64,000 nucleotides of DNA from an uncultured bacterium (lineage in GTDB: Bacteria; Zixibacteria; MSB-5A5; CAIYYT01): assembly GCA_963726455.1 (NCBI GenBank), contig CAVSCK010000004.1:800001-864000 (forward strand), read 5' to 3'. This document shows, one piece after another, positions 48 to 50,346 of this stretch (the first letter of the stretch is position 1; the number at the start of each line of letters is the position of its first letter). A program made the translations under genes and the position numbers. The notes under the pieces are model-generated. The model was not told the origin of the DNA, made no database searches, and saw only the letters and a list, made by a program, of their open reading frames with translations.

Positions 48-797
48 TCACGGCAATACCCTCCTGACCGCCCTGACCTTGTCCGCCAAGTCAGCTCGAA
101 AATCGGGCGCATCCTTGTCAAGCGACTCAATCACAACCATACCACGCAATCGTGTCGCGTGAATGATCCGCAATCCCCCAAGACATATCGCCACATGGCC
201 GGGAAAGAAAATCAGATCACTGTCGCGTGCATTTGCCAGTGTCACCTCGCTTCCCAACCTGCTCTGGTCTTTGCTGTCGCGAGGAAGATTGACACCGCAC
301 CGACTGTACACTGCCTGCACCAGTCCGCTGCAGTCGTAACCAAACGGAGATGAACCGCCCCACAGATAAGGCGCCGACAGGAGCGTCCGGGCAATTTGGT
401 TCGGTATCAGTTCGGCACGCTGCATGACGCTATCCACGTCGCCGGAGATAGTGGTCATTTTCGACTGTGTGCAGATTTCCCGATACACACCGCCTGATTT
501 TTCGGGATACACCAACGCACCGAACGGCAAAACTAACTCGCTACCATTCTCCATTGTGAAAGTTGCCCACCGGGAGGCAACCACGGCAGGATTCGGCAAC
601 GAGTCGTCAGTCTCCTCCAGGTAACTCTCGGCCAGAAAGCCGTCGTACCCGTCGCCAGTGCGCACGCGGCAGAATTTCTCTGCCTGATCGATTAGCTCTA
701 CGCAATGGCCGTACAAGACCTGCGACATGCGTTCGCAACCATGACGGGGTTCACGCCGAAGATCGGCAACGGGAACGATCACAATGCGGGAAGACAT
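48..797 (-). CDS. SH3b + NlpC/P60 (C40) peptidase, gamma-D-glutamyl dipeptidyl-peptidase-like
   Basis: N-terminal SH3b-like 'VADLRREP...SQVLYG...DGYDGF'; NlpC/P60 motif 'PYLWGG...GYDCSGL' with catalytic Cys and 'GHVAI...IIHA'. Confidence 0.88.
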   Translation of the reverse strand: MSSRIVIVPVADLRREPRHGCERMSQVLYGHCVELIDQAEKFCRVRTGDGYDGFLAESYLEETDDSLPNPAVVASRWATFTMENGSELVLPFGALVYPEKSGGVYREICTQSKMTTISGDVDSVMQRAELIPNQIARTLLSAPYLWGGSSPFGYDCSGLVQAVYSRCGVNLPRDSKDQSRLGSEVTLANARDSDLIFFPGHVAICLGGLRIIHATRLRGMVVIESLDKDAPDFRADLADKVRAVRRVLP

Positions 798-908
798 AGG
801 TCAATAAAGGGCAGACTCAAGCCATACTTCAACAAAAATTGCATCGTCAGTTGATCGCGATTCAAGTGAATCGCAATCTCAGCCATATCAATTCATACGT
901 CTGCCAAC

Positions 909-940
909 AAAAAAGCCGGTGGAGTAATCTCCACCGGCTT
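909..940 (-). terminator. Rho-independent terminator of the TBDT-CTD-PorV operon
   Basis: Perfect hairpin AAGCCGGTGGAG-taat-CTCCACCGGCTT followed by a T-run on the minus strand, about 20 nt after the stop at 960. Confidence 0.9.
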
Positions 941-959
941 GAAATGAATGTCGGACAGC

Positions 960-1977
960 TTAGAACGACACCTTAAAGGTGAAATAGTTGTTGCTGCCCG
1001 AAAAGAAGTCGCGCTGCTGCCAGCTGTAGTCAAAACCCATGTGCGTCTGACCCCAAGCCACTTTTACGCCGGCGCCCAACGCCGGCCCAAACATGTAATC
1101 CGATTGGCTGGAAGTTGAATAACCAGCACGCAGGAAGAACATGTCGTTGTAAGAGTACTCGCCGCCGCCTCTGATTTCGTCCTGCGAGAAGTTGTTGCTC
1201 TGGAACGTTGCCGCCAGTTCAACATTGTTCTTCTCGCCGGCTTTGTTCAAAGGATCCCAGGCCGCACCGAATTGCACCGAGGAGGGCAATTCAAATGCCA
1301 CACTCTGGGAACGCAAGTCATGAGTGAAGCCATTCGCCGGTGGTGTCACCTTTGTGCCGAAATTGGGGCCGTCGAATTTCATGTGTGGTCCAAAATTCTT
1401 GACCACCACACCGAACTTCAATCCCCGATAGTTGGGCACGTAGGTGAATCCGAAATCGAAGGAGACTCCCCGCGCCGACACCTGTTCAACTCTTTCGTTG
1501 ACAAATGCGGCTGTCAGGCCAAATGCCACTCTGTCGGTAAAACTGCGAGCGTAGGTCAGGCCGACTACTGAGAATGTCGGATTGAACGTTTCACCGGCGG
1601 CATTCTGCTGATCATCCCAGGTCGTCTTCTGCATGGTGCCGATCGACAGCACCTTGGCAGAAACGCCAATCGAGCCAAAGCCCTCGATCGAAGTCGTTAC
1701 CGCGGCATACTCGACGCTTCATACCGGCAAAATAATCGAGATGCGAGAACATGGCCTCGGTGCCGGATTGCCTTACCACGCCGGCAGGATTCCAATAGAG
1801 CGCCTCCGTACCGGAGCAATTGGCGACCAGCGCCCCACCCATGGCGACGCCCCGGGAGCCGACCGAAATGCGCAACTCCTGCGCACCTGCCGTTCCAATG
1901 CGATCCTCGCTACCGGCGAGGAGCATAGCGCTGAGTGCGATGACTAGCGCTAACGATAGCCATAATGTCTTTCTCAT
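960..1977 (-). CDS. PorV/PorQ-family outer-membrane beta-barrel; split by one +1 frameshift at about 1717 (probable sequencing error)
   Basis: Signal peptide, 'GTAGAQELRISVGSRGVAMGGA...ALYWNPAG' PorV-family N-terminus, C-terminal aromatic strand 'YFTFKVSF'. Removing one base in ATGAAGCGTCGAG joins ORFs 1612..1977 and 960..1652 (…FAGM-x-VEYAAVTT…). Confidence 0.85.
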
Positions 1978-1995
1978 CGTTTTTACCTCCTCACC

Positions 1996-4900
1996 TTAGA
2001 ATGTGTTAAGTTGTTCAACTTCAGTGAATATTGCCATCTTGCCGTATTTGCTGCCCAGCCCCGGGGCCTCAATCAGCCAGACGTAAATACCTGGTGCAAC
2101 CCAGAGGCCTTTGTCCGTCTTGAGATCCCAGACAAACTCCGAGTTGTAAATGTCCGTTCGCTGCATCGTCCGCACCAAATCGCCGGCAATGTTAAAGACC
2201 CTGATGGTCATCGGCGCTGCCGGCAAGTTGATGAATTTGATCATCCGATGGAATTGGTCCCTCTCCTCATTGTAGTAATTGTAATATGGATTTGGAACCG
2301 TCAGGACCCCATCAAGTGAGTTGGCGACATACGTGCCATTCACCGTCTCAGCTTTCTTCGACGTGTACTGGAACACATCAGCCGGAAGGTTCGGCTTCGC
2401 CGCCTCGATGGTTAGCTTGTCACCCTCTTGAATGTCGGTGATCGCAAACGGTGGATTACGCAACTTTGGAGTCATGGCGTACATGATATCCATGTCGCTG
2501 CCATTGGCGTTGGGGTTGTTATTCATATAGAACGGATCCGGCGTCTCAGAGTAAGTAGAGTTGAATATGAAGAGATACTCGCGGGCTTTGGTACCGTCCG
2601 CACCTGGGAACCAAGTCGAATCGTAGGTAGCGGGTTGACCGTTATTCTCGACAAAACCGGCATTGAGCTGCCGTGGCGGATTTGACTGCACATCCCAAAT
2701 CGTAAACGGACAATCGAAATATCCGATAGCGGCATAGTTGGGAGTTCCACCACGCAAGTAGTCGTAGCATTTCTGCTTCGTCGTATTGCTGAAACGAATT
2801 TCAACAGTGCGGTATTGTGCCGGTTGAATATTCGATCCAAAGAAATCCGGACCGTTCCACAGGCCACCGTTGAGCCAGTCAGGGTTGCCCCCAAATGCGG
2901 CTTCACCGGTGATCCATCTGGTTTGACCTGCCCACGCCCAACCCTTGATTCCCGGAGGCAGACCTTCCATCTTCCATTGGATTCCGTCCACAGTCTTGTA
3001 AGGGCCGTTGGGGTCCTGATTCGTCTGATTCACAAGCAGCGTTTCCTGTGCCGCAGGCAAATTCAGATCACGCAGGAACCAGGTAAGATCCTCGGCAAAG
3101 CCAACCTGGTAGGTGTGACCGGTTACGTCCGCCGGTATCATATACTCGATGGCCAATGTACCGTCACTCGTACCGGTGTGCTGGGCGGTATCCTGGAACA
3201 CTCCAGAAAAGACACGCGGTCTCACCTCGTACGAGATGATCGGACTTTCGAGGTTCTCAACGATGAATCCTAAGAATTTCTGGTTAAGGTCGAAGAAAGG
3301 AGTCATGTTCCTGACATCGTAGGAATAAGCAGTGACCGCATACCAATAAGGCTGATTGTCCTTCAAAGGACTACCGTCAACTTTACTGGTATTCAAGCTC
3401 AAATGATATTGCAGCCCCGAATTTGAGCCTTTTTGGAGAATGAGCCGCTGGGTCCCCCCGGCCGCAGGGTCGACCACATCACCATAGAGTGAGGCCACAT
3501 CGCAGAATGTAAATGTTGTTTCAGGTGGATCTCCAGAGATATCTGAGATGCCACAAGCCGCCTGATCCGATATGTCATAAGTGGCGAATTTTGTCCAGGG
3601 GCCAACCGCAGATGCGCCCTGCCAGACATTGAAACCTTCGAAATGGAATTCCTGATTGAGAATAGCGCTGGAGTCGACAGTGCCTACCGGCTCGTCGCCC
3701 CAACTCAAGTCAACGCCGCCTTCGATACCACGCGCCCAGACTGAAGGCGGAGGTGGCGGGTTGGGAATTTGGAAGTTGAGATTAAACACTGCCTGAATCT
3801 TCCCTACGTTGTTCTTCAACGCGCTGACCGAGCTAATCGGGTCAGTGCCCTGGCCGACGATACATGCAATAACCACTTCCTGGGTGTCACCGGGATTCAT
3901 GGTGAAGGGACCTGCATTCAGCATCATTCTCTTGTCGGCCGGCGTGGGGTCAAGCCAACCCGTACCTTCCTTGGGATCACCAGAAGCGACAAACGTTGTG
4001 ACTTCGTTGGTGACCGGATTGATCACCTGCGTGCCGTCACGGTTAAGTCCTTTCATGTAAGTATAGGTCACACTTGGATTATCAGGATCGGTGCCATTGA
4101 CATAACGGTTGAAAGCAGTCATCGGCAGGTTCTTGAAACCGTGGCGCCACTTACCGGACACCAGAGCAGAATCCTCAGGAGCGGCGGGAATAATGGGCCC
4201 CTCCAGAAATACAAAGCCGACGGACGGAGGAGCGGCTCCATAGAGATTGTCCGGTCCTGAATTGTAGCAGTAGCCGAGACTGAGAAGTGTGTCGCAGCCA
4301 ACAAGATCGTCGCTGGCCTCACCCAGATCGGGATCAGACCAGGCGGAAACGAAGGCGCTGTCCAACTGGTTCGGTCCTTTGTTGATGATCCTGAACTTCA
4401 GATAGATGGCATTGCCCAAGGCGCCGGCACGAGCAAAAGCGAACGTCGATTGTTGGATTTCAAGCCCGAGCGGTTGGGTGCTGCCCGCATTATTCGAGTG
4501 CTGCGCCGGATCACCGTCGTTGTAGACCGCCCAGGCCATCTGATCGCCCAGGATTGCCGGACTTCCCGTTGAATCGACCGGAGCTCCCTGGTTCACCGGC
4601 CAAATAGCGAAGTCCGGATTGGTCGCGGCATCGTCACCTCTGTTCAACTCGTAGACTCTAAAGTCTGGGCTATCCGTCTGAAAGGTGCCGTCCAGCATCG
4701 GGCCCGGAGTGAACTCACTCGAGTACTCTGCCACGGCGATTCTGGTGCGACCATTTACCTTGGCGCCCAGCCAGATACCGGCATCATAAATACAGTGTAG
4801 ATTCGTACCGCGAGGAAAATACAAACCGTCGTTTCTTCCACGCGATGCGGTCTTATCGTAAGCGTAGTTTCCAACGTTGGTAATGATCATATCCAGCGAG

Positions 4901-5043
4901 TTCACACCGACGTTATGAGTCGCGTCGATTATCATGATTTCGCCGGGACTTTCCCATTTCCCTGAAATGTTGCTGAGACTCCACGCCACCGCGGTCATCA
5001 ACAGAAACATTGTCAGGGAAAGAACCAATCTCGATTTATTCAT
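1996..5043 (-). CDS. Large secreted protein with T9SS type-A-like C-terminal sorting domain (1015 aa)
   Basis: Signal peptide; C-terminal 'VPNPY...IKFINLP...TIRVFNIAGDLVR...WDLKTDKGLWVAPGIYVW'; SD GGAGG upstream. Confidence 0.85.
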   Translation of the reverse strand: MNKSRLVLSLTMFLLMTAVAWSLSNISGKWESPGEIMIIDATHNVGVNSLDMIITNVGNYAYDKTASRGRNDGLYFPRGTNLHCIYDAGIWLGAKVNGRTRIAVAEYSSEFTPGPMLDGTFQTDSPDFRVYELNRGDDAATNPDFAIWPVNQGAPVDSTGSPAILGDQMAWAVYNDGDPAQHSNNAGSTQPLGLEIQQSTFAFARAGALGNAIYLKFRIINKGPNQLDSAFVSAWSDPDLGEASDDLVGCDTLLSLGYCYNSGPDNLYGAAPPSVGFVFLEGPIIPAAPEDSALVSGKWRHGFKNLPMTAFNRYVNGTDPDNPSVTYTYMKGLNRDGTQVINPVTNEVTTFVASGDPKEGTGWLDPTPADKRMMLNAGPFTMNPGDTQEVVIACIVGQGTDPISSVSALKNNVGKIQAVFNLNFQIPNPPPPPSVWARGIEGGVDLSWGDEPVGTVDSSAILNQEFHFEGFNVWQGASAVGPWTKFATYDISDQAACGISDISGDPPETTFTFCDVASLYGDVVDPAAGGTQRLILQKGSNSGLQYHLSLNTSKVDGSPLKDNQPYWYAVTAYSYDVRNMTPFFDLNQKFLGFIVENLESPIISYEVRPRVFSGVFQDTAQHTGTSDGTLAIEYMIPADVTGHTYQVGFAEDLTWFLRDLNLPAAQETLLVNQTNQDPNGPYKTVDGIQWKMEGLPPGIKGWAWAGQTRWITGEAAFGGNPDWLNGGLWNGPDFFGSNIQPAQYRTVEIRFSNTTKQKCYDYLRGGTPNYAAIGYFDCPFTIWDVQSNPPRQLNAGFVENNGQPATYDSTWFPGADGTKAREYLFIFNSTYSETPDPFYMNNNPNANGSDMDIMYAMTPKLRNPPFAITDIQEGDKLTIEAAKPNLPADVFQYTSKKAETVNGTYVANSLDGVLTVPNPYYNYYNEERDQFHRMIKFINLPAAPMTIRVFNIAGDLVRTMQRTDIYNSEFVWDLKTDKGLWVAPGIYVWLIEAPGLGSKYGKMAIFTEVEQLNTF

Positions 5044-5095
5044 CTGCTTCCTCCTATAGCTCGTGATCCTTTCAACTCATAATCCATGGTTGACA

Positions 5096-7897
5096 TTAGA
5101 AGTTCATCCTCAGGCCGAGACGCAACTGACGCGGAGTGTCGTAGTTCATCGGATTCCGCTGTTTGAAGTCATACTTCGCTTGTCCGTCAGTTGGATGGGT
5201 CGCCAGATATTCCTGACCTCCCGGCGTGATGAGCCAGCCGGTATTGTCCGGAAGACCGGTGCCTTCGTAAACGTTGATCACGTTCTTGGTATTGAAAACG
5301 TTGATCACCCAAAGATAAATATCCCAATTCAACTTGCCGATTCCGAAGGTCTTGTTGGCCTTCAGGTCGAGTCGATAGGTCCACGGCATATTGCGCGAGT
5401 TTACCGTTCCGGCGGGATTGGGGGAAAGCGCCTGAATCGATATCTCGTTGTAAATGTTCACTGGAGTGTAAGGAGTTCCCGAAGCCGCCTGGAATACGAA
5501 ATTGATACCGGCATTTTCCAGCGGGTAAGTTTCGCCAAGCTTGGGCCCCTGGTGCTTCTGGGCGCGGACATCCATCATTGCAGTGATCTTGTGGCGCTGG
5601 TCAAAGTCCAGTGGCGCTACGCGCTGCGGACGCTCGCTATTTGTCCAGGCGATGTTGGACTGGGTCGTCGCGTAAGAACCGGTACCGTCGGCATAAGCCA
5701 GCGAATAATCCAGTTCTCCCGAGACGCTACGAGTCCGTCTCATCACCAACTGGAAATCAATACCTTTGATTGTGCCAAAGTCAGTGTTTTGATACATCGG
5801 GAACGAATTCGGAATCGACGAGATATTCAGAATCTCCGTTAGGTTCTTCACGTCCTTGTAATAAGCAGTTGCCGTGAAGCTCGTAAAATCGCCCAACTGA
5901 TGCGCAATACCGACCTCGTATGCCGTTGTCTCTTCCGGCTTCAAGTTCGGATTGCCGATCGGGGCATAGTAAGGATTGAACTTCAGCATGCGCTGCAACC
6001 ACGCCGTGCCAACATACAGGTATTGCAGTTCCGGTCTCTGGAAGAACTTGCCGTAGTTGACGTGCAACACGGTCTTGTCTGAAACCGGGAATCCGACGCC
6101 CAAACGCGGCGATACCTTCTGCTCGGCCTTGGCCTTCACAAATTGGTCTGGACCCAGAAGGTTGGTAACGGGGTCAAGCGGACGAGCCGGGTTCTTTAAC
6201 TGATCGGTATTTACATTGAGATAGTCCCAACGTATACCGGCGTTGACTACCAGTCCCTGCCATTCCAACTTGTCCTGCAAATAGACAGCGAAGTCGTACG
6301 GCTTCTTGACGCCATTCGGCCCACTGTTGACGGCGTTCTGTCCGGTAATATCCCAGCCATACGCATTGGCGTCCTGGTAACTTACCTGCTGGAATAACGC
6401 CGGATCGTGAACCGTCGTGTCAATCTTGGTCGGACTAAGATGCTGGTACCAACGAAGACGATGGAAATTAGCATCAATACCGAATTGCATCAGGTTCGTC
6501 TTGTTTATCTGGCTGCTCAACGCGAACGTTGCGCCGACGTAGGAAGACCGTCTCTTTAGGAAGTCATCCCACACGTGGCCGAGATCTTTTCCCGTGCTGT
6601 CGGTACCACCGAGCCAGAACAATGTTGACTCGTCGAAGCGCGGATTTCCGCCTGGGCGACCATAGGCGATTAGATTGTCCCAATATTTCGAGTCGCCGCG
6701 CGTGCGTTTGGTCAGATAGTAAGTCGTTCCCAACTCGAAGAACGTTTTGGGCGAGAGATTGCTCGTCCACTTGCCGTAATACGAGTAGTTCTCGTCCACA
6801 TAGCGCGGCGAATGATTCTGGTCGAAGTAGTAGTCCATGCGGAACTCGCGCCAGTCATCCTTGCTACCGAGCGTGCCAAAGCGCAAAGTGTTCTTCTTGT
6901 TTACATCGTACTGAAGTTTGCCCTGCCAGGTCCAACCAGACAGCGAGTTCATCGGCAGGATTCCGTTGGTAATTGCCTTGGGAGTTCGATCGCCGGTGCG
7001 ACGACGCTCCATCGAAGCAAAGAACGTCGCTTTATCGCTCCCCGGTTTCACGGGGCCGCCGATGTTGAAATCAATGACGTTGTAATCATACCGGTGCGAC
7101 TTGTTGTTGAAGCCGTCTGTGACTCCTTCCAATGCACCGGAATATTGGCTGCTGCCCGCTTTCGTGGTTACGTTGATTGCGCCAGAAGAAACCCACCCGT
7201 ATTCGGCGTTGAAACCTCCGGTCGAGATCGCAATCTGATCGATCGCGTTGTTGTTAATTGAGGTAGTCGACAAGTTGGTCAACGGATCCTGTTGCGAGAA
7301 ACCGTCCACGTAATAGGCGACTTCGCCCTGACGGCCTCCGCGAATGTTCAAAACCGGTTCATTAGTGGCTTCGCGCGCACCGCGCAAGTTTAGCGTCGGC
7401 GGCTGCTTGTAATTTGCCACTACACCGGCATTCAAACCGACGACATCCTGATAACCGCGTGTCGGCAGTTGTTGTACCTGATCCGACGTTACGATCTTCA
7501 GTGAAGCCGTCTGGTCTTTGATAATCATCGGACGCTCAGCAATTACTATCTGAGTCTCTCCGATGTTAAGCACCTTGGATGACAGCTGAAAATCTGCGTT
7601 CGAAGTCAAGTCGACGGAAACACGCAGACTCTGCAACTCCACCGGCGCATAACCGATAATGTTCGCTACGAGGTCATATTGACCGGCCGGGACGTTAAGT
7701 ATGAAATACTTACCTTCCGCATCCGTGAGCGCTCCCATGGTGGTTCCTTTGATCGAAACCGCCACTCCCGGCAGAGGAGACCCTGTATCCTTATCCGTGC
7801 ATCTACCTGAGATCTTGCCTACCGTTGCGGCAAACACCATCCCACTGAGCACCAGAACCAAGAACAGGGTGGCTACAAGTTTTGATCTAAGCTCCAA
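5096..7897 (-). CDS. TonB-dependent outer-membrane transporter with N-terminal carboxypeptidase-regulatory-like domain
   Basis: Signal peptide, 'GKISG...DTGSPLPGV' CarboxypepD_reg, plug 'LNIRGGR...YYVDG', 'GGFNAEYG', 'GNPNLKPE', C-terminal 'RLGLRMNF'; TTG start with AGGAGG SD. Confidence 0.95.
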   Translation of the reverse strand: MELRSKLVATLFLVLVLSGMVFAATVGKISGRCTDKDTGSPLPGVAVSIKGTTMGALTDAEGKYFILNVPAGQYDLVANIIGYAPVELQSLRVSVDLTSNADFQLSSKVLNIGETQIVIAERPMIIKDQTASLKIVTSDQVQQLPTRGYQDVVGLNAGVVANYKQPPTLNLRGAREATNEPVLNIRGGRQGEVAYYVDGFSQQDPLTNLSTTSINNNAIDQIAISTGGFNAEYGWVSSGAINVTTKAGSSQYSGALEGVTDGFNNKSHRYDYNVIDFNIGGPVKPGSDKATFFASMERRRTGDRTPKAITNGILPMNSLSGWTWQGKLQYDVNKKNTLRFGTLGSKDDWREFRMDYYFDQNHSPRYVDENYSYYGKWTSNLSPKTFFELGTTYYLTKRTRGDSKYWDNLIAYGRPGGNPRFDESTLFWLGGTDSTGKDLGHVWDDFLKRRSSYVGATFALSSQINKTNLMQFGIDANFHRLRWYQHLSPTKIDTTVHDPALFQQVSYQDANAYGWDITGQNAVNSGPNGVKKPYDFAVYLQDKLEWQGLVVNAGIRWDYLNVNTDQLKNPARPLDPVTNLLGPDQFVKAKAEQKVSPRLGVGFPVSDKTVLHVNYGKFFQRPELQYLYVGTAWLQRMLKFNPYYAPIGNPNLKPEETTAYEVGIAHQLGDFTSFTATAYYKDVKNLTEILNISSIPNSFPMYQNTDFGTIKGIDFQLVMRRTRSVSGELDYSLAYADGTGSYATTQSNIAWTNSERPQRVAPLDFDQRHKITAMMDVRAQKHQGPKLGETYPLENAGINFVFQAASGTPYTPVNIYNEISIQALSPNPAGTVNSRNMPWTYRLDLKANKTFGIGKLNWDIYLWVINVFNTKNVINVYEGTGLPDNTGWLITPGGQEYLATHPTDGQAKYDFKQRNPMNYDTPRQLRLGLRMNF

Positions 7898-8379
7898 ATC
7901 TGAACCTCCTGTTACACAAGTTGATACGTTGCCAAACGTACATAACGATACTCCTTAAGTTCAACGGCATTCCTCCTCAAAACTTTAGGGCTCCTCCTTT
8001 CGATCCACTCACTTCTGACATTTTTCTTCCAACGTTTTAAACGCAATAAAAACACAATCTTCTAAGTCTATCTATGTGTCCACGCATATTGGCAGCAGGC
8101 AGGAAGCGCAAATACCCCGATGTAGAATCCAATGCTGAGACAACCTCCAGTCGACCCGCATTCAATAGAATCATACCCAGCCATGCATCCTTGCCGGACA
8201 TCGATATGATTTTGCTCCCCTTCGTATACGCAATAGTTGCCCCGATGCCACTATTTTGTCAATATAAAACTTTAACTAACCATTTGATCTAGAGCGGCTT
8301 AATCGTACGAATAGTGGAGCGCACCTACCGGCTGGGTGGCCCGGCAAACTTGGATCGATTCCTGCGTGCTCCGGTGCCG

Positions 8380-13475: not shown

Positions 13476-16400
13476 ATGCGAAAACTAACGGTCCTCACTT
13501 TAGCACTATTGTACGTGGTTGCTCTGACCTCGGTTGCGGCTTTTGCCGCCAACGCGCCAAGAATTAATGGCGTGGAGAGCCAGCCACATATGGTTCCAAT
13601 CGAAAATAGCAATGTCCCAATGCTGGAGACCGGTCCGGAAATCGGCACCACCAGCAAGCCGTCAGCCGCGTCGATGCAGGCACTGGGATACTATATGTCG
13701 CCGGGTCTGATCCTGGAAACGACCGACTACGACTTACAGCACAACAGCCGCATGGCCCGTCAGGTTGAAGTTGGCACCGATGGCCGCGTCCATTTTATTT
13801 GGACGTACAAAGCCGTCGCCGCTGATCTCGGCCTTCGCGCCGCGCATTACAGAACCTGGGTCACCAATGGTGGTGGCTTCGGTAGCATACTGTCTCTGTC
13901 AGACGACCTTGGCAAGACGCCGGGACGTTTCTGCACAGTTGACGTATATAACAACGCTGGCATGGGTGTCTGGCACTACACTGTTGGCGCCGACCCGCAG
14001 ACTACTTCGGCAATGGATGCCGGCTCTGGACTGAATCTGTTCACTGCCGTTAATCCGCCAGCCGGTGTAATCAACTGCCAGAATATCCACGCAGGCACGA
14101 AATTTATTCCCTACATTTGGCCGAGCGCTTGCACTGATGTTGACGGCTCCGGCAACGTGGTTGTTCACATCATAGCAATGGAAGGCAATACCGGTGCCGG
14201 TTATGCCGCCCTCACTTACTTCCGCGGCGCCCCGGGTGGAACTACCTTCCAGGACGGCATGTACGGCACGTGCGGCACATTTATTGACTCCACCACAACG
14301 ACTGCTTACGATGTCGCCGCCAGCCCGACCACGAACGACGTGGTCATCGCTTATGCCAAGGCGAGACAGAACAATAACCGTGAAAACAGTGATATGGTCT
14401 ATCGCAAGTCGACCGACATGGGCGTCAACTGGGGCCCCATTGTGAATATCACCAACTACCCAACCGGCACCAAGGAACGCGCCGGTGAAGACGTTTCGGT
14501 GTTATTTGATGGTCGCAACTGTTTCCATATTCTGTATCTGGGAACGATCTACGATTCCATCGCCGGTACTTATTCTGATCAGGAAGTTAAGTTGTTTCAC
14601 TGGACAAGCTGCAATGCGCTCTGCAAGAGCTTGATCGTGAATGCCACGAACCATGATGCCAACTGTAACACTCCTGCATTTGCCTACAATGTGACCAAGA
14701 TCAACATCACCCAGTGCGCCAGAACGGCTACGAACGACACGCTGCTCTATGCCGTTTACACGCGTTATCTGGGCACAACGGCGGATCCGGATTGCTCCTT
14801 CAAGCATTATCCGAACGGCGAAGTATTTGTGTCAGCGTCGTCGACTTGGGGCGAAACCTGGGGTGCTCCAATCAACCTGACGAATACCAAGACCAATAAC
14901 TGCACGGGCGGCAACTGCGCCGACGATCGTTACACATCTTCGTCGCGTTACGCCAAAGACACGCTGCGCATTGAATACCTGCAGGATCTCGACGCCGGCA
15001 GCTTCGTCAGCAACGAAAGCTCGACTGCTGACCTCGCCAACCCGGTAATGTTCCTCAGCTATCCTTGCGTCTCGATGTCTCCGTATCAGTCGCTGTCCGC
15101 GACTCCGAGCGTTATCAAGTACTGGCCTACCCCGTTCTTTGCCAAGCGTAATGCCACTGCGACGCAGAACATCACGCTGATGAACGCCGGTAACCAGTCG
15201 GCCAGCTGGACCAGAGCCTTCTCATATACCAATGGTTCTAACTGGTTGAGTTGCCAGGCCAGCGGTTCTGTAGGCGCCGGTTGCACCAACTCGGCTTCGT
15301 TCGTTCTTACAGCCGGTCCGATCGCGACCGAAGGTTTGTACAAAGGCAAGGTTACGTTCTCGTACGACAGCCCGGTGCAGACGTTTGATCTTCCGATCGA
15401 CTTCTACGTATTTGACACGTTCAGATTGCCGCAGGATATACCGCTTCGCACTGCGACCAGCCGTATGATGGTCAACCAGACCGGCCAAGTCGGCGATGAC
15501 ATTGGTGGTTCCTCGTGGACTTACTTCTCGGAGGTCGACGTCGACGCCATCACCGACGGTTCGCTTATTCTTGGTAATGCCGCTCACAACCTGAGCTGGA
15601 GAATCTACCAGAGTGGCCAGGGTGAGCCGACTGCGTCGAACCCCTATGGCATAATTTATGCTAGAGACACGATCGCTATTGATACCCTGCCCAGTGGCAA
15701 CGCTTTCTATCGCAAGGCCTGGGGCACGGGCACGAACCGCGACTCCACGTTGGAGTTCTCGGTAGAGTGGTATGCACCGAAGTTTGTCGATACTGACGGC
15801 TTCTACATTGGCAAGTTCGATCTGTATAAAGGCCGCAAGACCCCTGGGACACCGGTTACGGGCCTCACAGTGGCCTTCTCAACCGACTGGGACGTCCCGG
15901 ATGATTCACTCGGTTCTGACAACATTGCCCACAACGATCCTACCAGAAACCTGGTGTATTTACAGGGTGCATACTCTGTGGATAAGAACAACGGCTACGG
16001 TGGTATCGCGGCATATCGTGAAGACAACCAGCCGATCGCCGGTGGTTTCACCTGGACAAACTCGCAGCATGTGTACCTGGAATCTGGTTACAACTGCGAC
16101 TCCATGTGGAATTGGCTGACTCGAATCAACTCTGTTCAGAGTCTTCCGGTGGACACCGTGACCGACCAGTCCATCACGATGATCATTGCCAAGGGTCTGA
16201 CAATCAGCCAGGGTGATCACTTCAAGTTTGACGTGATTCACGTCGGTAAGCGCGGCGAACTTAATCCGGGAGGGCTTCCAGCTTTCCTGGCCATGGTTGA
16301 TGCCGGCAAGAAGTTCCTGTGCGGCCACATTTCCAACTCTAGCGCACTGTGCTCCGGTTGTGTCGATTGTGGCGATGCCAACAGCGACGGCGCGGTTGAC

Positions 16401-16589
16401 ATTTCCGACGCGGTGTTCTTGATTCAGTACATCTTCGCCGGTGGTGCGGCTCCGGGAACCTGCACCTACGCCTTTGGTAAGGGCGATGCCAACGGTGACT
16501 GCACAGTTGACATTTCCGACGCGGTGTACTTGATTCAGTACATCTTCGCCGGTGGCGCTGCTCCTCACTGCGGAGTGGGCTGCAAATAG
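13476..16589 (+). CDS. Large secreted Cys-rich protein with Asp-box/BNR-like repeats, Ig-like segment and C-terminal dockerin (1037 aa)
   Basis: Signal peptide; Asp-box-like 'KSTDMGVNWG' and 'SSTWGETWG'; duplicated 'GDANxDxxVDISDAVxLIQYIFAGG'; SD AAGGAG. Confidence 0.85.
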   Translation: MRKLTVLTLALLYVVALTSVAAFAANAPRINGVESQPHMVPIENSNVPMLETGPEIGTTSKPSAASMQALGYYMSPGLILETTDYDLQHNSRMARQVEVGTDGRVHFIWTYKAVAADLGLRAAHYRTWVTNGGGFGSILSLSDDLGKTPGRFCTVDVYNNAGMGVWHYTVGADPQTTSAMDAGSGLNLFTAVNPPAGVINCQNIHAGTKFIPYIWPSACTDVDGSGNVVVHIIAMEGNTGAGYAALTYFRGAPGGTTFQDGMYGTCGTFIDSTTTTAYDVAASPTTNDVVIAYAKARQNNNRENSDMVYRKSTDMGVNWGPIVNITNYPTGTKERAGEDVSVLFDGRNCFHILYLGTIYDSIAGTYSDQEVKLFHWTSCNALCKSLIVNATNHDANCNTPAFAYNVTKINITQCARTATNDTLLYAVYTRYLGTTADPDCSFKHYPNGEVFVSASSTWGETWGAPINLTNTKTNNCTGGNCADDRYTSSSRYAKDTLRIEYLQDLDAGSFVSNESSTADLANPVMFLSYPCVSMSPYQSLSATPSVIKYWPTPFFAKRNATATQNITLMNAGNQSASWTRAFSYTNGSNWLSCQASGSVGAGCTNSASFVLTAGPIATEGLYKGKVTFSYDSPVQTFDLPIDFYVFDTFRLPQDIPLRTATSRMMVNQTGQVGDDIGGSSWTYFSEVDVDAITDGSLILGNAAHNLSWRIYQSGQGEPTASNPYGIIYARDTIAIDTLPSGNAFYRKAWGTGTNRDSTLEFSVEWYAPKFVDTDGFYIGKFDLYKGRKTPGTPVTGLTVAFSTDWDVPDDSLGSDNIAHNDPTRNLVYLQGAYSVDKNNGYGGIAAYREDNQPIAGGFTWTNSQHVYLESGYNCDSMWNWLTRINSVQSLPVDTVTDQSITMIIAKGLTISQGDHFKFDVIHVGKRGELNPGGLPAFLAMVDAGKKFLCGHISNSSALCSGCVDCGDANSDGAVDISDAVFLIQYIFAGGAAPGTCTYAFGKGDANGDCTVDISDAVYLIQYIFAGGAAPHCGVGCK
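16371..16564 (+). repeat. Direct repeat (2 x 83 nt, period 111 nt) encoding the two halves of the dockerin
   Basis: 16371-16453 vs 16482-16564 differ at 8 of 83 positions by my alignment. Confidence 0.9.
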
Positions 16590-16645
16590 TTCATTCAATT
16601 GACTAGTCCAACGAGTTCTTGATTCGTGGAACTAGCCGAAATAAG

Positions 16646-16678
16646 ACCGTGCCGACCGTTTGGTCGGCACGGTTTTTT
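16646..16678 (+). terminator. Rho-independent terminator
   Basis: ACCGTGCCGACC-gttt-GGTCGGCACGGT followed by TTTTT. Confidence 0.92.
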
Positions 16679-16701
16679 GTTTGCCACTAATCCGCAAGTC
16701 G

Positions 16702-16730
16702 TTGCTTTAGTCATGCCGTCATGGTATGTT
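16702..16730 (+). promoter_or_regulatory. Sigma70-type promoter abutting the ATG (probable leaderless mRNA)
   Basis: TTGCTT-17-TATGTT with TGn extension; ATG 6 nt later at 16737; no SD. Confidence 0.55.
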
Positions 16731-16736
16731 TCGGTG

Positions 16737-18932
16737 ATGCTTCAGATTGTCAAAACCAGACTTCTGTGTCTGTTCGGCATATTTCTGTTGGCATTCGCGC
16801 ACAGTGCGATAGCCGCAGATGACACCCTTGGTCTGTCCCCGGGTGGCGTGCAGGACGAAGCATTTTGGAAGGCGCACATTCATCAACTGCAGAAGATGTC
16901 TCTCTCGGCCAGAGCGCAGGAAATGACCCCACTGGAAAAACGCTTTGATGTGACCTACTATATCATCCGCCTGAAGATCGATCCGTCCACAACTGCTGAA
17001 ACCATCGACGGTGCAGTCACCGTTTTCGGAAGTGCTGTTGCGGGTACACTCGACACCGTTCAACTCGATTTCTCTCAGTCTCTGACCGCCGATTCAGTGA
17101 CCAGCGGCGCCTCGCGGCTGGACTTTCAACAGACAGGTGACTTGCTCACAATAGCGCTGCCGGGCGGCGGAAGTAACATTGGTTTTGCCTTGACCGTTCA
17201 TTATCGTGGTCAACCACAGAATTTTGGTTTCGGTTCGTTCAAATTCGAAAGCTTCAACTCACATCCGACTGTTTCCACGCTCTCCGAGCCATATTATGCA
17301 CGCGGTTGGTGGCCATGCAAGGATCATCCAACCGACAAACCGGATTCCGTAGATATGTATGTCACAATCGACAGCAATTTGATTGTGGCTTCCAACGGTT
17401 CGCTGGTCTCGATTGTGAAAAATGGCGACGGCACCAACACCACACATTGGCATGAATCGTATCCCATCGCCACCTACCTGGTCAGTCTCGCCATCGCCGA
17501 TTATTACACCTATTCCGATACTTTGAAATATGGCGGCTTCACTATGCCGATCGATTTCTTTCACTACGGGCCGCCGGGAGATGTGATCAGAGCTAGATAT
17601 GCCAAAGTGAAGGACATGATCGCAGCCTTCTCGGATATGTTCGGGATTTACCCTTTCATCAGGGAAAAGTACGGGCATGCAGAATTCACCTTTGGCGGTG
17701 GCATGGAGCATCAAACTTGCACTTCGCTGGGCGCCTTCGACGAAAATGTGATTGCACACGAACTCGCACACCAATGGTGGGGCGATATGGTAACGTGCGG
17801 CTCCTGGCACGATATCTGGCTGAATGAAGGGTTCGCGAGCTACGGTGAAGCACTCTGGGCCGAACATACCGACGGCATGGCCGGGTACCATGCCATGATG
17901 AATACATTTCCCGATACGTGGGATACAACGCGGGCGCGTGATACTCTGATCGTCACTGACACGACCTCCGAATTTACCCTATTCAACTGGAAAGTGTACC
18001 GCAAGGGTGGATATGTGCTGCACATGCTGCGTTACACGATCGGTGATTCTGCCTTTTTTCGCACTTTGCACCGTTACGGTGAACCACCTTACAAGTATAG
18101 TACCGCAGTGACCGAGGACTTTCGCCGTGTTGCCGAGGAGGAATCGGGCCAGAATCTCGAGACATTCTTCCAGCAGTGGGTCTATTCCGGAGGTCAGCCA
18201 TACTACCACTATGGAATGTTACCGATCACCACTGATACCGGAGTGGTGACCTACTTCTTCCTTGACCAGGTACAGGCAGGGCGCAATCCGTTTCAGACTG
18301 ATATCGACGTTAGGTTTGACTTTGCCGACACAGCGTTGACGTTCCGACTGTCGGACACATTGTCTAGCCAGAATTTCGTTTTCCGGTTTGACACAGCTCC
18401 CATCAGTTGCACAGTCGACCCCGACCACTGGATATTGCAGCGGAATTCACTGGCGGACTTCGGCTTCCGGTTCATCACGGATTCGCTGCCTGACGCTTAT
18501 ATCTCTGCGCCATATAGTCAGCAACTCATTGTGGCCGGCGGACGTGATCCCCTGACCTGGTGGGCGCCGGTTGTGACCCTACCACCCGGCCTGACCCTAA
18601 GCTTCGACGGCATACTGTCAGGCACGCCAACCGAAACCGGCCAGTATCTAATTGGTGTGCGCGTTACCGATGCCTCGTCACCGGCACGGGTTCTTGTAAC
18701 GAACCTGCCGTTGAATGTCAAAGAGCTTCACGGCAACGTCGATGGCCAGCCCGGAATCGGCCTCTCGGACCTGATATACTTGATCAGATACCTGTTCAAG
18801 GGCGGCAATCCCCCCGCAAACTTGCAGCTTGCCGACACCAACTGTGATGGCGCGGTGGACCTTGTCGACGTTGTCGTACTACTCAACTACCTCTATGATC
18901 GCGGACCACTTCCCTGCGCCACCTTCAATTGA
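16737..18932 (+). CDS. Secreted M1-family aminopeptidase with putative Ig (He_PIG-like) domain and C-terminal dockerin
   Basis: 'GGMEH', 'HELAHQWWGD...WLNEGFA', 'YRKGGYVLHMLR'; 'LPPGLTLSFDGILSGTPT'; dockerin 'GNVDG...LSDLIYLIRYLF...DTNCDGAVDLVD'. Start moved to 16737 because the longer ORF runs through the upstream terminator. Confidence 0.92.
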   Translation: MLQIVKTRLLCLFGIFLLAFAHSAIAADDTLGLSPGGVQDEAFWKAHIHQLQKMSLSARAQEMTPLEKRFDVTYYIIRLKIDPSTTAETIDGAVTVFGSAVAGTLDTVQLDFSQSLTADSVTSGASRLDFQQTGDLLTIALPGGGSNIGFALTVHYRGQPQNFGFGSFKFESFNSHPTVSTLSEPYYARGWWPCKDHPTDKPDSVDMYVTIDSNLIVASNGSLVSIVKNGDGTNTTHWHESYPIATYLVSLAIADYYTYSDTLKYGGFTMPIDFFHYGPPGDVIRARYAKVKDMIAAFSDMFGIYPFIREKYGHAEFTFGGGMEHQTCTSLGAFDENVIAHELAHQWWGDMVTCGSWHDIWLNEGFASYGEALWAEHTDGMAGYHAMMNTFPDTWDTTRARDTLIVTDTTSEFTLFNWKVYRKGGYVLHMLRYTIGDSAFFRTLHRYGEPPYKYSTAVTEDFRRVAEEESGQNLETFFQQWVYSGGQPYYHYGMLPITTDTGVVTYFFLDQVQAGRNPFQTDIDVRFDFADTALTFRLSDTLSSQNFVFRFDTAPISCTVDPDHWILQRNSLADFGFRFITDSLPDAYISAPYSQQLIVAGGRDPLTWWAPVVTLPPGLTLSFDGILSGTPTETGQYLIGVRVTDASSPARVLVTNLPLNVKELHGNVDGQPGIGLSDLIYLIRYLFKGGNPPANLQLADTNCDGAVDLVDVVVLLNYLYDRGPLPCATFN

Positions 18933-28802: not shown

Positions 28803-29615
28803 TCGATCTGCATTTACATACGCATCACTCCGATGGATCGTGTACGCCTGAGGAGACGATGCAGCGTGCACACGAAACCGGATTGTCGGCGATGGCGATC
28901 ACCGACCACGACAGTCTGTCGGCGATCGATGAGGCGCGGAAATACGCCGACGGTATCGAGTTCGTAACCGGCGTGGAATTGTCATGCCATTATCAGGGCG
29001 TCGACATTCACATGCTGGCCTACTTCGTCGATCCGACCTATCCGCCGCTAGTCGAGAAGGTGAAGTTCTATCAGCAGGAACGGCTCAAACGCGGCATCCT
29101 GATCGTAGAGAAGCTGAACGAGCTGGGGATCGATCTGAAGATGGAGACCGTACAGCGCATGGCCAAGGACGCCACGATCGGCAGAGTACACGTCGCCGAT
29201 GCCCTGCTGAAGGAAGAGTATGTGCAGGACGTTTGACGAGGCCTTCAGCCGTTATCTGGGCTACCATGCTCCGGCCTATGTTCCCAAGACGCATTTCGAA
29301 CCGGCGGAAGCGATTGAACTGGTGCATCAGGCGGGCGGTATCGCGGTGATGGCGCATCCGGGCTCAACGCGCCGCGACGATGCGATCGCGTTTCTGAAGG
29401 GGGTCGGCATGGATGGCCTTGAAGTCTATCATTCTAAACACACACCGGCCCAGGTACGTCATTACAAAGAGATGGCCACGCGCAACAGTCTGCTGGTTTC
29501 CGGCGGGTCCGACTGGCATGGTCGCAACGACCCGCGCTCGGAAATGGGAAATCAGCGCGTATCTTATTCGGTGCTTGCACGCATGAAGGACTACCTGGAA
29601 GCCCGTGGCAAATGA
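28787..29615 (+). CDS. PHP-domain phosphoesterase (YciV/TrpH-like); one +1 frameshift at about 29227
   Basis: 'DLHLHTHHSDG', 'AITDHD', 'GVELS', 'GRVHVA', 'AHPG', 'GGSDWHG'. Confidence 0.88.
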
Positions 29616-29637
29616 AAATGATCTGAAAGGAGTTGCC

Positions 29638-50287: not shown

Positions 50288-50346
50288 TGTCGTTTTTGTT
50301 ATCTGAACCTCATGTTAGTGTTCTATTCCGTGGAGACGCGTTATCG

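Follow-up and report, generated by a model that had tools for sequence, protein, structure and literature searches.

The textbook model of polymer capture in bacteria of the FCB group is SusC/SusD, whose SusD component is an alpha-helical lipoprotein that, to our knowledge, is confined to Bacteroidota. PopC, the secreted protein linked to the transporter Oar in Myxococcus xanthus, reportedly has neither a type IX secretion system (T9SS) C-terminal domain (CTD) nor a PorV-like partner. Anchoring of surface proteins by their CTDs is documented for Porphyromonas gingivalis, where uncleaved CTDs keep PorU attached to PorV and PorZ attached to PorQ, and cognate PorV-like β-barrels have already been proposed (review PMC10202324). 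Proteins with type-B CTDs bind adjacent PorP-like barrels, and in PG1035–PorP and SprB–SprF a dedicated small barrel encoded beside the cargo gene anchors the cargo (PMC9143113).

The window (the entire 64,000-nucleotide stretch of DNA that was analyzed) contains a triad of genes encoding a TonB-dependent transporter (TBDT), a large secreted protein (BIG), and a barrel of the PorV/PorQ family. As described for PorQ–PorZ and PorV–PorU of P. gingivalis (PMC10202324), a 14-strand-type barrel of this family would hold a large surface protein by its uncleaved CTD, but the barrel falls below the equivalog cut-offs for PorQ, PorV, and PorV2, and, apart from its CTD, BIG shows no relationship to PorZ or PorU. 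Moreover, BIG and its barrel are encoded together with a TBDT, with no role in LPS attachment implied, and the pair is found in metagenome-assembled genomes (MAGs) of Zixibacteria, Eisenbacteria, Marinimicrobia, and Calditrichaeota type. The dedicated barrel beside the cargo gene recalls PG1035–PorP and SprB–SprF, but it is a PorV/PorQ and not a PorP/SprF barrel, the CTD is type-A-like and not type B, and those systems involve no transporter. Like SusC/SusD (RagA/RagB) and the associated surface glycan-binding proteins, the triad combines a TBDT that has a carboxypeptidase-regulatory-like domain with a surface protein, here a presumed one without a catalytic signature and with a predicted carbohydrate-enzyme-like binding fold. 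By contrast, its transporter lies outside the SusC/RagA family, no SusD gene adjoins it, and BIG is all-beta, has no lipobox, and would owe its anchoring to CTD and barrel instead of a lipid. A TBDT linked to a secreted protein is also known from Oar–PopC (PMC6434023), but the window transporter has no match to an Oar-type barrel. The triad further differs from BamG–BamH of the Bacteroidota BAM complex, where a lipoprotein, BamH, has BamA as its partner barrel; a BamG match, found in one barrel ortholog only, was weak (28.9 bits versus a cut-off of 250 bits).

The initial annotation of this locus knew of no characterized example of such an architecture. A literature search that had most subscription journals outside its reach found no description of a TBDT–BIG–barrel triad, but the anchoring principle has precedents in PorU–PorV, PorZ–PorQ, and PorP-type systems, and we rate the triad as a variation on known PorQ–PorZ and PorP-type anchoring.

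Organization and conservation of the triad

All three genes lie on the minus strand, in the order transporter (5096..7897), BIG (1996..5043), and barrel (960..1977), with gaps of 52 nt (transporter/BIG) and 18 nt (BIG/barrel). A terminator-like hairpin (903..940, minus strand) with a 12-bp stem (940–913; 8 G–C pairs, 4-nt loop) and a subsequent T run directly follows the stop codon of the barrel gene; across the region, terminator-like sites are rarer than in shuffled sequence (3 observed, 8.2 expected). The transporter gene has a TTG start with AGGAGG 7 nt ahead of it, and its promoter is presumed to lie in the intergenic region on its 5' side (7898..8379, minus strand), where the GC content falls to 0.48 and which contains no Rfam family, no sigma-70-like site, and no sigma-54-like match. 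The genes flanking the triad in the window encode an NlpC/P60 protein, LipB, an E2 acyltransferase, NadA, and a sigma-54 response regulator, and a Pfam scan of the window neighbors found no SusD domain among the genes adjoining the triad. The initial annotation, which had described three co-directional, closely set genes (gaps of about 50 and 20 nt), closed by a strong terminator and devoid of SusD, is thus accurate in each of these respects. The next gene downstream (48..797, minus strand) encodes an endopeptidase with NlpC/P60 and SH3_16 domains (PF00877, 72.5 bits; PF18348, 38.9 bits); it is separated from the triad by the terminator and hence is a possible functional neighbor, not a member of the operon.

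The transporter (933 aa) comprises a signal peptide, a carboxypeptidase-regulatory-like domain, a plug, and a 22-strand-type barrel. Its identification as a TBDT is borne out by matches to Plug (PF07715, 37.1 bits; gathering score 23.9) and TonB_dep_Rec_b-barrel (PF00593, 101 bits; gathering score 27), and the match to CarbopepD_reg_2 (PF13715, 63.9 bits) is likewise above the cut-off. Membership in the SusC/RagA family was rejected, because TIGR04056 gave 63.4 bits against a cut-off of 368.25 and matched the N-terminal region only, and because no SusD/RagB gene is adjacent. No PDB chain matches the transporter at E ≤ 1e-5. Its N-terminal regulatory-like domain shows a weak match to an S-layer model.

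The barrel gene is split into two ORFs (1612–1977 and 960–1652) by a frameshift. Residues 1–87 of an intact ortholog of 341 aa (L004) align to positions 1977–1717 with 80% identity and residues 88–341 to positions 1715–963 with 70% identity; since the alignment continues in the next frame, one extra base near position 1716 is the only defect of the gene. The extra base may reflect a genuine mutation, in which case the module may be dead in the window, or a mistake in the assembly. The N-terminal part (1717..1977, minus strand, first frame) gives partial matches to NF052325 (44 bits) and NF033709 (37.9 bits), whereas the remainder including the stop codon (960..1715, minus strand, next frame) passes the PorV/PorQ family model NF033709 on its own (93.9 bits; cut-off 90). 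All 12 intact orthologs examined also pass (113–176 bits), and the best PDB match of the barrel profile is PorV of F. johnsoniae (6h3i_F, E 5.6e-22), in agreement with the initial assignment to the PorV family. The equivalogs PorV (NF033710), PorQ (NF033711), and PorV2 (NF052325) were rejected, with scores of 41–74, 58–93, and 40–77 bits among the 12 orthologs and cut-offs of 250, 220, and 325 bits, respectively.

Conservation of the gene order was assessed in the best 80 of 598 related loci, which comprise 81 copies of BIG, 64 of them with room on both sides. In 57 of these 64 copies, the transporter is located directly upstream and the barrel directly downstream of BIG on the same strand (median tblastn gaps of 67 and 61 nt), and because this order is identical in 57 related loci, the triad is not a product of chance. 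It occurs among these best 80 loci in Zixibacteria, Eisenbacteria, Marinimicrobia, Calditrichaeota, and related MAGs and constitutes an outer-membrane module that is conserved in uncultured bacteria of the FCB group; among named relatives, Zixibacteria are the best for the window. All six BIG copies without both neighbors end in a Dockerin_1 domain in place of the CTD. The dockerin state changes five times on the head-domain tree, with at least four changes forced by well-supported branches, and the dockerin-bearing copies differ from one another in architecture. The presence of the CTD is linked to the presence of transporter and barrel as neighbors, and both are lost where a dockerin replaces the CTD.

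The three genes also diverged together. Among 51 complete triads, the pairwise distances are correlated (Mantel Spearman 0.72, 0.62, and 0.83; each value reached by 0 of 999 permutations) and the gene trees have 29, 27, and 34 of 48 splits in common, so the congruence that the initial annotation had suggested examining does exist. In three MAGs with two triads each, the components fall into matching clades, completely for one clade and in part for the other, and the paralogous triad L068 sorts inconsistently for BIG and barrel. Any linked genes that are inherited vertically are expected to agree in this way, and the CTD–barrel pair is not singled out by a partial Mantel correlation given the TBDT (0.18; 12 of 999 permutations). 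The distances of the BIG head domain track those of the transporter (0.77; partial 0.68 given the CTD) more strongly than the CTD tracks the barrel.

Genes related to peptidoglycan flank 19 of the 58 triads in three arrangements, with NlpC/P60, S66 LD-carboxypeptidase, epimerase-like enolase, and/or Amidase_3 as neighbors; in L001–L007, the NlpC/P60 neighbor is followed by the S66 LD-carboxypeptidase, the enolase-type epimerase, and Amidase_3. The other 39 triads have no peptidoglycan gene within the flanks examined (up to 8 kb on each side). The substrate of the module may be peptidoglycan-derived.

Architecture and C-terminal domain of BIG

BIG is a secreted protein of 1015 aa that consists of a head, a proline-rich linker, a variable beta-sandwich middle, and the CTD; its AF2 model (pLDDT 89.4, pTM 0.81) is all-beta apart from one long helix (residues 402–421). 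The protein begins with a signal-like helix, has no cysteine among residues 1–35, and matches no Pfam or NCBIfam family at or above the cut-off, which agrees with the earlier claim that it carries neither a catalytic motif nor a lipobox. Of 8000 scored candidates, 1567 are homologs at E ≤ 1e-3, and all source names among the matches listed read "hypothetical protein". A second copy of BIG on the same contig is truncated. The majority-residue frequency of the CTD (0.63) is close to that of the head (0.70) and far above that of the middle (0.43–0.51).

The head domain (residues 37–432; 3748..4935, minus strand) is the most conserved part of BIG and contains an invariant acidic cluster (W235-D237-D239-G241...D251...D265). 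Modeled alone (pLDDT 95.1, pTM 0.93), its best Foldseek matches are chains of a GH15-like dextran dextrinase, GH116, GH94, and glucodextranase (E 6e-8 to 4e-5, TMq 0.37–0.44, 9–13% identity), suggesting a carbohydrate-enzyme-type beta super-sandwich that resembles the N-domains, themselves non-catalytic, of GH15, GH94, and GH116. Identity with these enzymes was rejected because no (alpha/alpha)6 catalytic barrel follows the super-sandwich in a model that is all-beta except for the single helix. Neither the curated families nor the Foldseek search of the head revealed a recognizable enzyme signature, which speaks against BIG being an ordinary enzyme, the outcome that the initial annotation had named as contrary to its proposal.

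A profile search with the head recovered 9244 cluster representatives at E ≤ 1e-3, and none of 40 superfamily members scanned has a Pfam model that covers the domain. In these 40 members, the head is combined with CTD-type tails (20), dockerins (6), cohesin, PKD, CBM_20, and Lectin_C, which are, judging from their domain assignments, display or binding modules; a known catalytic domain was not among the partners.

The CTD (about residues 906–1015; 1999..2328, minus strand) is a putative beta-sandwich of the FlgD-Ig/T9SS type, with beta strands predicted at residues 935–1005 of BIG in the AF2 model. Its conserved tail reads F-T-E-V-E-Q-L-N-x-[F/Y], and all 105 aligned relatives end in F or Y. 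With 14 bits on TIGR04183 (cut-off 23), it misses the curated type-A threshold; FlgD_ig matches BIG with E 0.012 and the isolated tail with E 8e-4, and among 22 relatives, FlgD_ig matches 16 and PF18962 at E ≤ 0.01 none. Its best HMM and PDB matches, which are weak, are the CTDs of PorZ and PorU. Another protein of the same window (40433–43225; TIGR04183, 39.1 bits) has a bona fide type-A CTD and no adjacent transporter. Alignment of the two CTDs by hhalign (probability 95.2%, E 2.6e-8, 62 columns) indicates that they are homologous. Both this homology and the beta-sandwich support the initial description of the domain as a type-A-like T9SS CTD, although it remains below the curated cut-offs of TIGR04183 and PF18962.

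Predicted docking and possible function

Complex prediction for the cognate CTD and barrel of L004 gave a score of 0.88, whereas the best of three controls reached 0.01. Of 157 solved complexes, 116 attained the 0.88 mark, as did 2 of 215 mismatched pairs; these counts provide only a rough calibration because the complex was run on our own alignments. The L004 runs have at least 87% of their contacts in common, with a partner pLDDT of at least 77. Binding of the CTD to its cognate barrel is thus a prediction for the L004 pair, and the interface may echo already solved PorV–CTD structures; the PDB entries of F. johnsoniae PorV matched by the barrel profile include substrate-bound translocons (6h3i, 8gl6, and others). 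The dedicated PorV paralog that had been envisaged to hold the CTD therefore gains a predicted interface, albeit one that possibly reflects memory of such structures. A T9SS core gene was not found among the ORFs scanned in the 64-kb window.

We propose that barrel-anchored BIG and the TBDT form a module for polymer capture and import, a mechanism to which we give, as a whole, an even chance of being correct. BIG would cross the inner membrane by Sec and then arrive at the cell surface along a type-IX-style pathway in which its CTD is recognized. The CTD would remain uncut on the dedicated PorV/PorQ-family barrel, as PorZ does on PorQ and PorU on PorV, and this docking would anchor BIG without lipid. 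The super-sandwich of the head would bind, and perhaps cleave, an extracellular polymer, and the co-encoded transporter would import the resulting products, so that BIG and barrel would do the job that SusD or a surface glycan-binding lipoprotein does for SusC in Bacteroidota. Going by gene order and co-divergence, BIG may be positioned next to or on the transporter and may capture substrate for it. The coupling might also be loose, with BIG as an ordinary T9SS cargo (an enzyme or adhesin directed at an extracellular polymer) that has its own anchor barrel and a transporter that takes up the products; the three proteins would then have regulation and substrate in common but form no physical capture complex. 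This reading, which we consider unlikely, would fit the dockerin-bearing heads, which work without transporter or barrel, and the variable middle of BIG, which looks more like a spacer than a fixed lid, but is at odds with the strict adjacency and short gaps in 57 loci, the close tracking of head and transporter distances, and the loss of the transporter along with the barrel whenever the CTD is replaced.

Other explanations assign different roles to the individual components. Since PorV/PorQ proteins are FadL homologs, the barrel might be a FadL-type channel for a small hydrophobic molecule, with the CTD of BIG merely an Ig-like module and adjacency not a sign of anchoring; the weak match of the barrel profile to TodX (E 3e-4) and the CTD scores below the T9SS cut-offs would agree with this. 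We judge it very improbable in view of the PorV/PorQ family assignment of all 12 orthologs, the best PDB match to PorV, the homology of the CTD to a bona fide T9SS CTD, the predicted interface, and the missing barrel whenever a dockerin replaces the CTD. A role in the cell's own envelope (peptidoglycan turnover or outer-membrane architecture), with BIG as a structural component of the surface layer, appears very improbable as well: the peptidoglycan-peptide enzymes adjoining 19 of the 58 triads also serve recycling, BIG lacks a catalytic signature, and the regulatory-like domain of the transporter weakly resembles an S-layer model, but TBDTs import in nearly all known cases, the partners of the head (dockerin, cohesin, CBM_20, lectin, PKD) are of the kind usual in the breakdown of extracellular polymers, and two diverged triads in some MAGs suit substrate diversification.

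Export instead of import would require the transporter to act as the outer-membrane gate for BIG, much as PopC secretion depends on Oar, with the PorV-like barrel receiving the CTD. Oar, which offers the precedent, presumably carries an N-terminal carboxypeptidase-regulatory-like domain like that of the window transporter, and a model for Oar-like barrels exists. As a TBDT, Oar is required for protein secretion (PMC6434023), and in the present loci every gain or loss involves transporter, CTD, and barrel as a set. Nevertheless, the transporter barrel is assigned to the generic PF00593, with no Oar-like barrel model among its Pfam matches, the protein at 40433–43225 with its standard type-A CTD has no adjacent transporter, implying a general T9SS route, and a folded protein of 1000 aa cannot pass a 22-strand barrel, which makes an exporter hardly credible. 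Just as little credence is due to a self-contained device for secretion and anchoring that dispenses with SprA, in which a TonB-powered gate releases BIG and the PorV-like barrel keeps its CTD; if it existed, it would represent a pared-down relation of type IX secretion, powered by ExbBD–TonB in place of PorLM.

In at least 57 loci, the triad pairs a TBDT with a lipid-free, putative surface protein and a PorV/PorQ-type barrel, which is proposed to serve as the anchor of that protein. If the capture-and-import mechanism is correct, type-IX-style docking of CTDs on barrels would be a general way to build surface machines, beyond the attachment complex of the T9SS. Abundant uncultured lineages from sediment and groundwater would then own a device for capture and import, possibly of peptidoglycan necromass, and a large domain family without a Pfam model (about 9,244 cluster representatives) would obtain its first functional context.

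Layout and conservation of the triad

The triad lies on the minus strand of the window and comprises a TonB-dependent transporter of 933 aa (gene 1, 5096–7897), a secreted protein of 1015 aa, here called BIG (gene 2, 1996–5043), and a barrel of the PorV/PorQ family (gene 3, 960–1977). The three co-directional genes are separated by gaps of 52 and 18 nt, and a hairpin with a 12-bp stem and a subsequent T run lies directly 3' of the gene 3 stop codon on the same strand; the tightly spaced, terminator-closed gene set described in the initial annotation is thus borne out by the coordinates, the Pfam and NCBIfam matches, and the hairpin. The transporter carries a carboxypeptidase-regulatory-like domain, a plug, and a TonB-dependent barrel, all above the Pfam cut-offs; with 63 bits against the SusC/RagA model TIGR04056 (cut-off 368), it falls outside that family, and it has no relative in PDB at E ≤ 1e-5. 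BIG begins with a signal-type N-terminus lacking cysteine and matches none of the curated Pfam and NCBIfam families.

The genes around the triad in the window are unrelated housekeeping genes, except for an NlpC/P60 endopeptidase downstream. Rfam gave 0 matches on the whole window, so that, judged by its models, a riboswitch is absent upstream of the transporter. A sigma-54 promoter pattern is absent from the region upstream of the transporter (7898–8379); window-wide, there are 89 matches versus 65 expected, which makes the pattern uninformative. Elsewhere, the window encodes an efflux operon (45846–51672, minus strand) with a MacB-type ABC permease pair, ATPase, membrane-fusion protein, and TolC-family channel, and an MXAN_6640-family HExxH metalloprotease (29605–31533).

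Gene 3 is broken in the window. Residues 1–87 of an intact ortholog align with 1977–1717 and residues 88–341 with 1715–963 in the next frame, which identifies one extra base near 1716 as the sole defect; the C-terminal open reading frame by itself passes the PorV/PorQ family model NF033709 (93.9 vs. 90 bits). The frameshift may be a real mutation or may stem from an error in the assembly. On the same 1,898,640-bp contig, beyond the window, a second BIG copy (57% identity over residues 1–585) ends abruptly at residue 562 inside a beta domain and is either truncated or frameshifted, so that both assembly errors and decay are plausible. Two open reading frames on the plus strand (37625–38245 and 38229–39203), which overlap by 17 nt in different frames and both encode FG-GAP repeats, the second with a dockerin tail, may represent another frameshifted gene and would then point to assembly indel errors.

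Among 8000 candidates scored, 1567 are homologs of BIG at E ≤ 1e-3; the names displayed are all “hypothetical protein”, and the organism labels displayed are Zixibacteria and Eisenbacteria. A survey of one genome per GTDB species yielded 598 loci encoding a relative, of which the best 80 (designated by L numbers) were taken with 8-kb flanks and searched by tblastn with the three proteins of the window. They contain 81 BIG copies, 57 of which have the transporter directly upstream and the barrel directly downstream on the same strand. A contig end cuts off 16 copies, on one side or on both; in one more (L073), scored as “transporter only”, the BIG reading frame runs past the locus end, and its classification as having no room sets the denominator at 64 instead of 65. 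Six copies (L015, L022, L035, L048, L058, and L066) have neither neighbor, and a second copy in L076 has no adjacent neighbors, with another BIG plus barrel 4 kb upstream. Hence, of the 64 copies with space for a neighbor on either side (best 80 of 598 loci), 57 belong to a complete triad in this gene order, with median tblastn gaps of 67 and 61 nt. The loci are labeled as Zixibacteria, Eisenbacteria, Marinimicrobia, and Calditrichaeota, and also include one MAG labeled as Gemmatimonadota and MAGs labeled as Ignavibacteria or Bacteroidota.

FastTree phylogenies were based on 51 complete triads, leaving out six of the 57 with cut or short reading frames. Mantel (Spearman) correlations are 0.72 for transporter and BIG, 0.62 for BIG and barrel, and 0.83 for transporter and barrel, values that none of 999 permutations reached. 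Of 48 splits, the trees have 29, 27, and 34 in common. Three MAGs have two triads each. For each of the three genes, one set (L010, L017, and L018) clusters with L020 and L063; the second triads (L034, L068, and L024) cluster for the transporter, and L024 and L034, not L068, do so also for BIG and the barrel. Going by these trees, the sorting of the paired triads is compatible with duplication of the whole unit. The predicted congruence of the three genes is therefore present in the 51 triads, though such agreement is to be expected of linked genes, and partial Mantel tests do not set the co-variation of C-terminal domain (CTD) and barrel apart from shared history.

The C-terminal domain and the barrel

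The CTD of BIG had been annotated as T9SS type-A-like. Its homology to this type is upheld: the profile of the CTD family matches the CTD of a 930-aa beta-propeller-repeat protein in the window (40433–43225, minus strand) with 95.2% probability (E 2.6e-8), and the latter is a bona fide type-A CTD (TIGR04183, 39.1 bits vs. a cut-off of 23). By contrast, the CTD of BIG itself remains below the cut-offs of the type-A models, with 14 versus 23 bits for TIGR04183; a Pfam scan of 22 relatives (E ≤ 0.01) matched PF18962 in none and FlgD_ig in 16. The only match in a PDB sequence search with the BIG profile is the CTD of PorU (E 0.075). With its bona fide CTD, the 930-aa protein implies the existence of a general type-IX-style sorting route in this organism; SprA and PorKLMN are absent among the reading frames scanned in the 64-kb window, and no paper on type IX secretion in Zixibacteria was found among open-access papers and bioRxiv. 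Neither a PorV-like nor a TonB-dependent gene adjoins the 930-aa protein.

The majority-residue frequency is 0.70 in the head of BIG, 0.43–0.51 in its middle domains, and 0.63 in the CTD, which, judged from the sequences, is unusually high for a sorting signal. The C-terminus of BIG (1999–2040) closes with the conserved tail F-T-E-V-E-Q-L-N-x-[F/Y], with an aromatic final residue in 105 of 105 relatives. Such conservation, together with the tail, would suit a domain that is bound to keep fitting a dedicated partner. This combination of an acidic tail and an aromatic final residue is similar to the signature at the C-terminus of outer-membrane barrel proteins, and in the predicted complex, just the first four tail residues (985–988 in L004) contact the barrel with confidence.

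All 12 intact orthologs of the barrel pass NF033709 (113–176 bits) and fall far below the equivalog cut-offs for PorV, PorQ, and PorV2. PorV2 (NF052325) was rejected as the family of the barrel at 40–77 bits versus a cut-off of 325; a genuine T9SS paper on “PorV2” was not found among open-access papers and bioRxiv. The nearest solved relative is PorV of F. johnsoniae (E 5.6e-22). Complex prediction employed the intact cognate pair of L004 (barrel residues 22–341 and CTD residues 880–994), a triad locus whose BIG is ~60% identical to that of the window. The pair scored 0.88, versus 0.01 for the best of three controls. Among solved complexes, 116 of 157 attain this mark, as do 2 of 215 mismatched pairs; these counts apply only approximately because the prediction used custom alignments. 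The prediction runs agree in at least 87% of contacts, with a partner pLDDT of at least 77. The score may reflect likeness to PorV entries in PDB, which include substrate-bound translocons. The proposal that a dedicated PorV paralog holds the CTD protein thus gains a predicted interface and stands at the level of a model, with PorV–substrate structures present in PDB.

The head domain and dockerin-tailed copies

In its AF2 model (pLDDT 89.4, pTM 0.81), BIG is nearly all beta: a 400-residue head leads through one long helix and a proline-rich linker to several beta-sandwich domains and then the CTD. Modeled alone, the head (residues 37–432, window 3748–4935) reaches a pLDDT of 95.1 and a pTM of 0.93. 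Its best PDB matches are a GH15-like dextran dextrinase, a GH116 beta-glucosidase, GH94 phosphorylases, and glucodextranase chains (E 6e-8 to 4e-5, TMq 0.37–0.44, ~10% identity). Because BIG has no helical barrel, these matches can involve only the beta-sandwich part of the GH enzymes, which we take to be their non-catalytic N-terminal domain. The invariant head residues are chiefly Asp, Asn, Gly, Trp, and Pro; a DxDxG...D...D cluster among them is a possible Ca2+ site. An ESM Atlas search with the head, limited to named clusters, gave no usable match.

At E ≤ 1e-3, the head profile retrieves 9244 cluster representatives, a number that falls to 6843 at E ≤ 1e-10 and to 3562 at E ≤ 1e-30. A Pfam scan of 40 of the best 150 members, picked for odd lengths, left the head uncovered by any model in all 40. 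CTD-type tails occur in 20 members (six above the PF18962 cut-off), dockerins in six, ExbD in one, and FG-GAP only in one; 12 lack any Pfam feature. Further partner domains are cohesin, PKD, CBM_20, Lectin_C, and beta-helix, and none of the 40 contains a known catalytic domain, which together characterize the head as an uncharacterized surface-displayed domain, either a binder or an enzyme of a new kind. Architectures range from head plus dockerin (~500 aa) to proteins exceeding 1700 aa and include two tandem heads (P0121 and P0122) and head plus cohesin plus CTD (P0125). One protein of 665 aa (P0129), with a head at 38–440 and an ExbD/TolR-like region at 591–660, represents either an unusual fusion with a TonB-system component or an artifact of gene calling.

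All six BIG copies without neighbors carry a type-I dockerin at the C-terminus in place of the CTD, and in four of the six cases, the MAG also contains a triad. In the head-domain tree, the dockerin copies require five state changes, at least four of which are forced by well-supported branches: L022 forms a sister branch to three triad copies (L002, L004, and L005), and L035 and L048 to those of their own MAGs (L008 and L009). Their architectures vary (head and dockerin; head, beta-helix, and dockerin; head, middle, and dockerin). Tree and architectures together indicate that the CTD was exchanged for a dockerin, with barrel and transporter absent as neighbors, more than once. Alternatively, if the heads had undergone gene conversion after a single old duplication, there would have been fewer independent events. 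The dockerin-tailed heads of L022:8001–9485, L035:8001–10955, and L048:7899–10946 cluster with the triad copies of their own MAGs (L002, L008, and L009) and not with each other, a pattern left either by gene conversion among paralogous heads or by repeated duplications in which tails were swapped.

Beside the dockerin-tailed paralog of L048 lie dockerin-tagged C25 (gingipain-type) and C11 (clostripain-type) peptidases (L048:157–3933 and L048:4110–6536), which hint at a cellulosome-like protease display system in such MAGs. The window itself encodes a 1037-aa protein (13476–16589, plus strand) with a terminal dockerin and otherwise no Pfam domain, which was rejected as a BIG paralog in the absence of significant similarity; the next gene (16626–18932, plus strand) encodes an M1 aminopeptidase with a He_PIG Ig domain.

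Flanking genes, precedents, and proposed function

In L001–L007, the triad is followed by four genes on the same strand, encoding an NlpC/P60 protein with SH3_16, an S66 LD-carboxypeptidase, an enolase-superfamily protein with best matches to N-acetyl-D-Glu racemase and L-Ala-D/L-Glu epimerase, and an N-acetylmuramoyl-L-alanine amidase (Amidase_3); their NCBIfam matches are all below the equivalog cut-offs. Of these genes, the window includes the first (48–797) and then stops. The barrel is directly followed by an Amidase_3 gene in L024 and L034, and Eisenbacteria-type loci have an NlpC/P60 gene with SH3_16 upstream of the transporter. According to local HMMs, 19 of 58 triads (window counted) have at least one such gene in their flanks and 39 have none, the 58 triads not being independent samples. 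Because the flanking enzymes dismantle peptidoglycan peptides, peptidoglycan fragments are one candidate substrate of the triad, albeit a tentative one; enzymes of these four types also serve the recycling of a cell's own peptidoglycan, and open-access papers and bioRxiv yielded nothing relevant on TonB-dependent uptake of muropeptides. Conserved proteins of 451 and 558 aa (L032:3255–4607 and L032:12023–13696) lie on either side of the triad in Eisenbacteria-type loci, with a GWxTD-domain protein further upstream. The two proteins match no Pfam or NCBIfam model, have homologs in 11 and 8 loci, and may be extra components of the module.

The initial annotation knew of no characterized example of such an arrangement. 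For the anchoring half, there is direct precedent in three papers: PorU is kept on PorV and PorZ on PorQ via CTDs that stay uncleaved, and the existence of cognate PorV-like barrels has been hypothesized (PMC10202324); type-B CTD proteins bind neighboring PorP-like barrels (PMC9143113); and BamG, which is FadL/PorV-like, serves as a platform for surface proteins (PMC12578637). New features are the constant association with a TonB-dependent transporter, the specialized CTD, the new barrel subfamily, and the new cargo family, all outside the classical Bacteroidota; a description of the triad itself was not found among open-access papers and bioRxiv. The likeness to SusC/SusD is functional only, as each test for SusCD membership was negative. 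In the best-supported reading, BIG would be a surface protein anchored through its cognate PorV/PorQ-type barrel, where it would work together with the adjacent importer.
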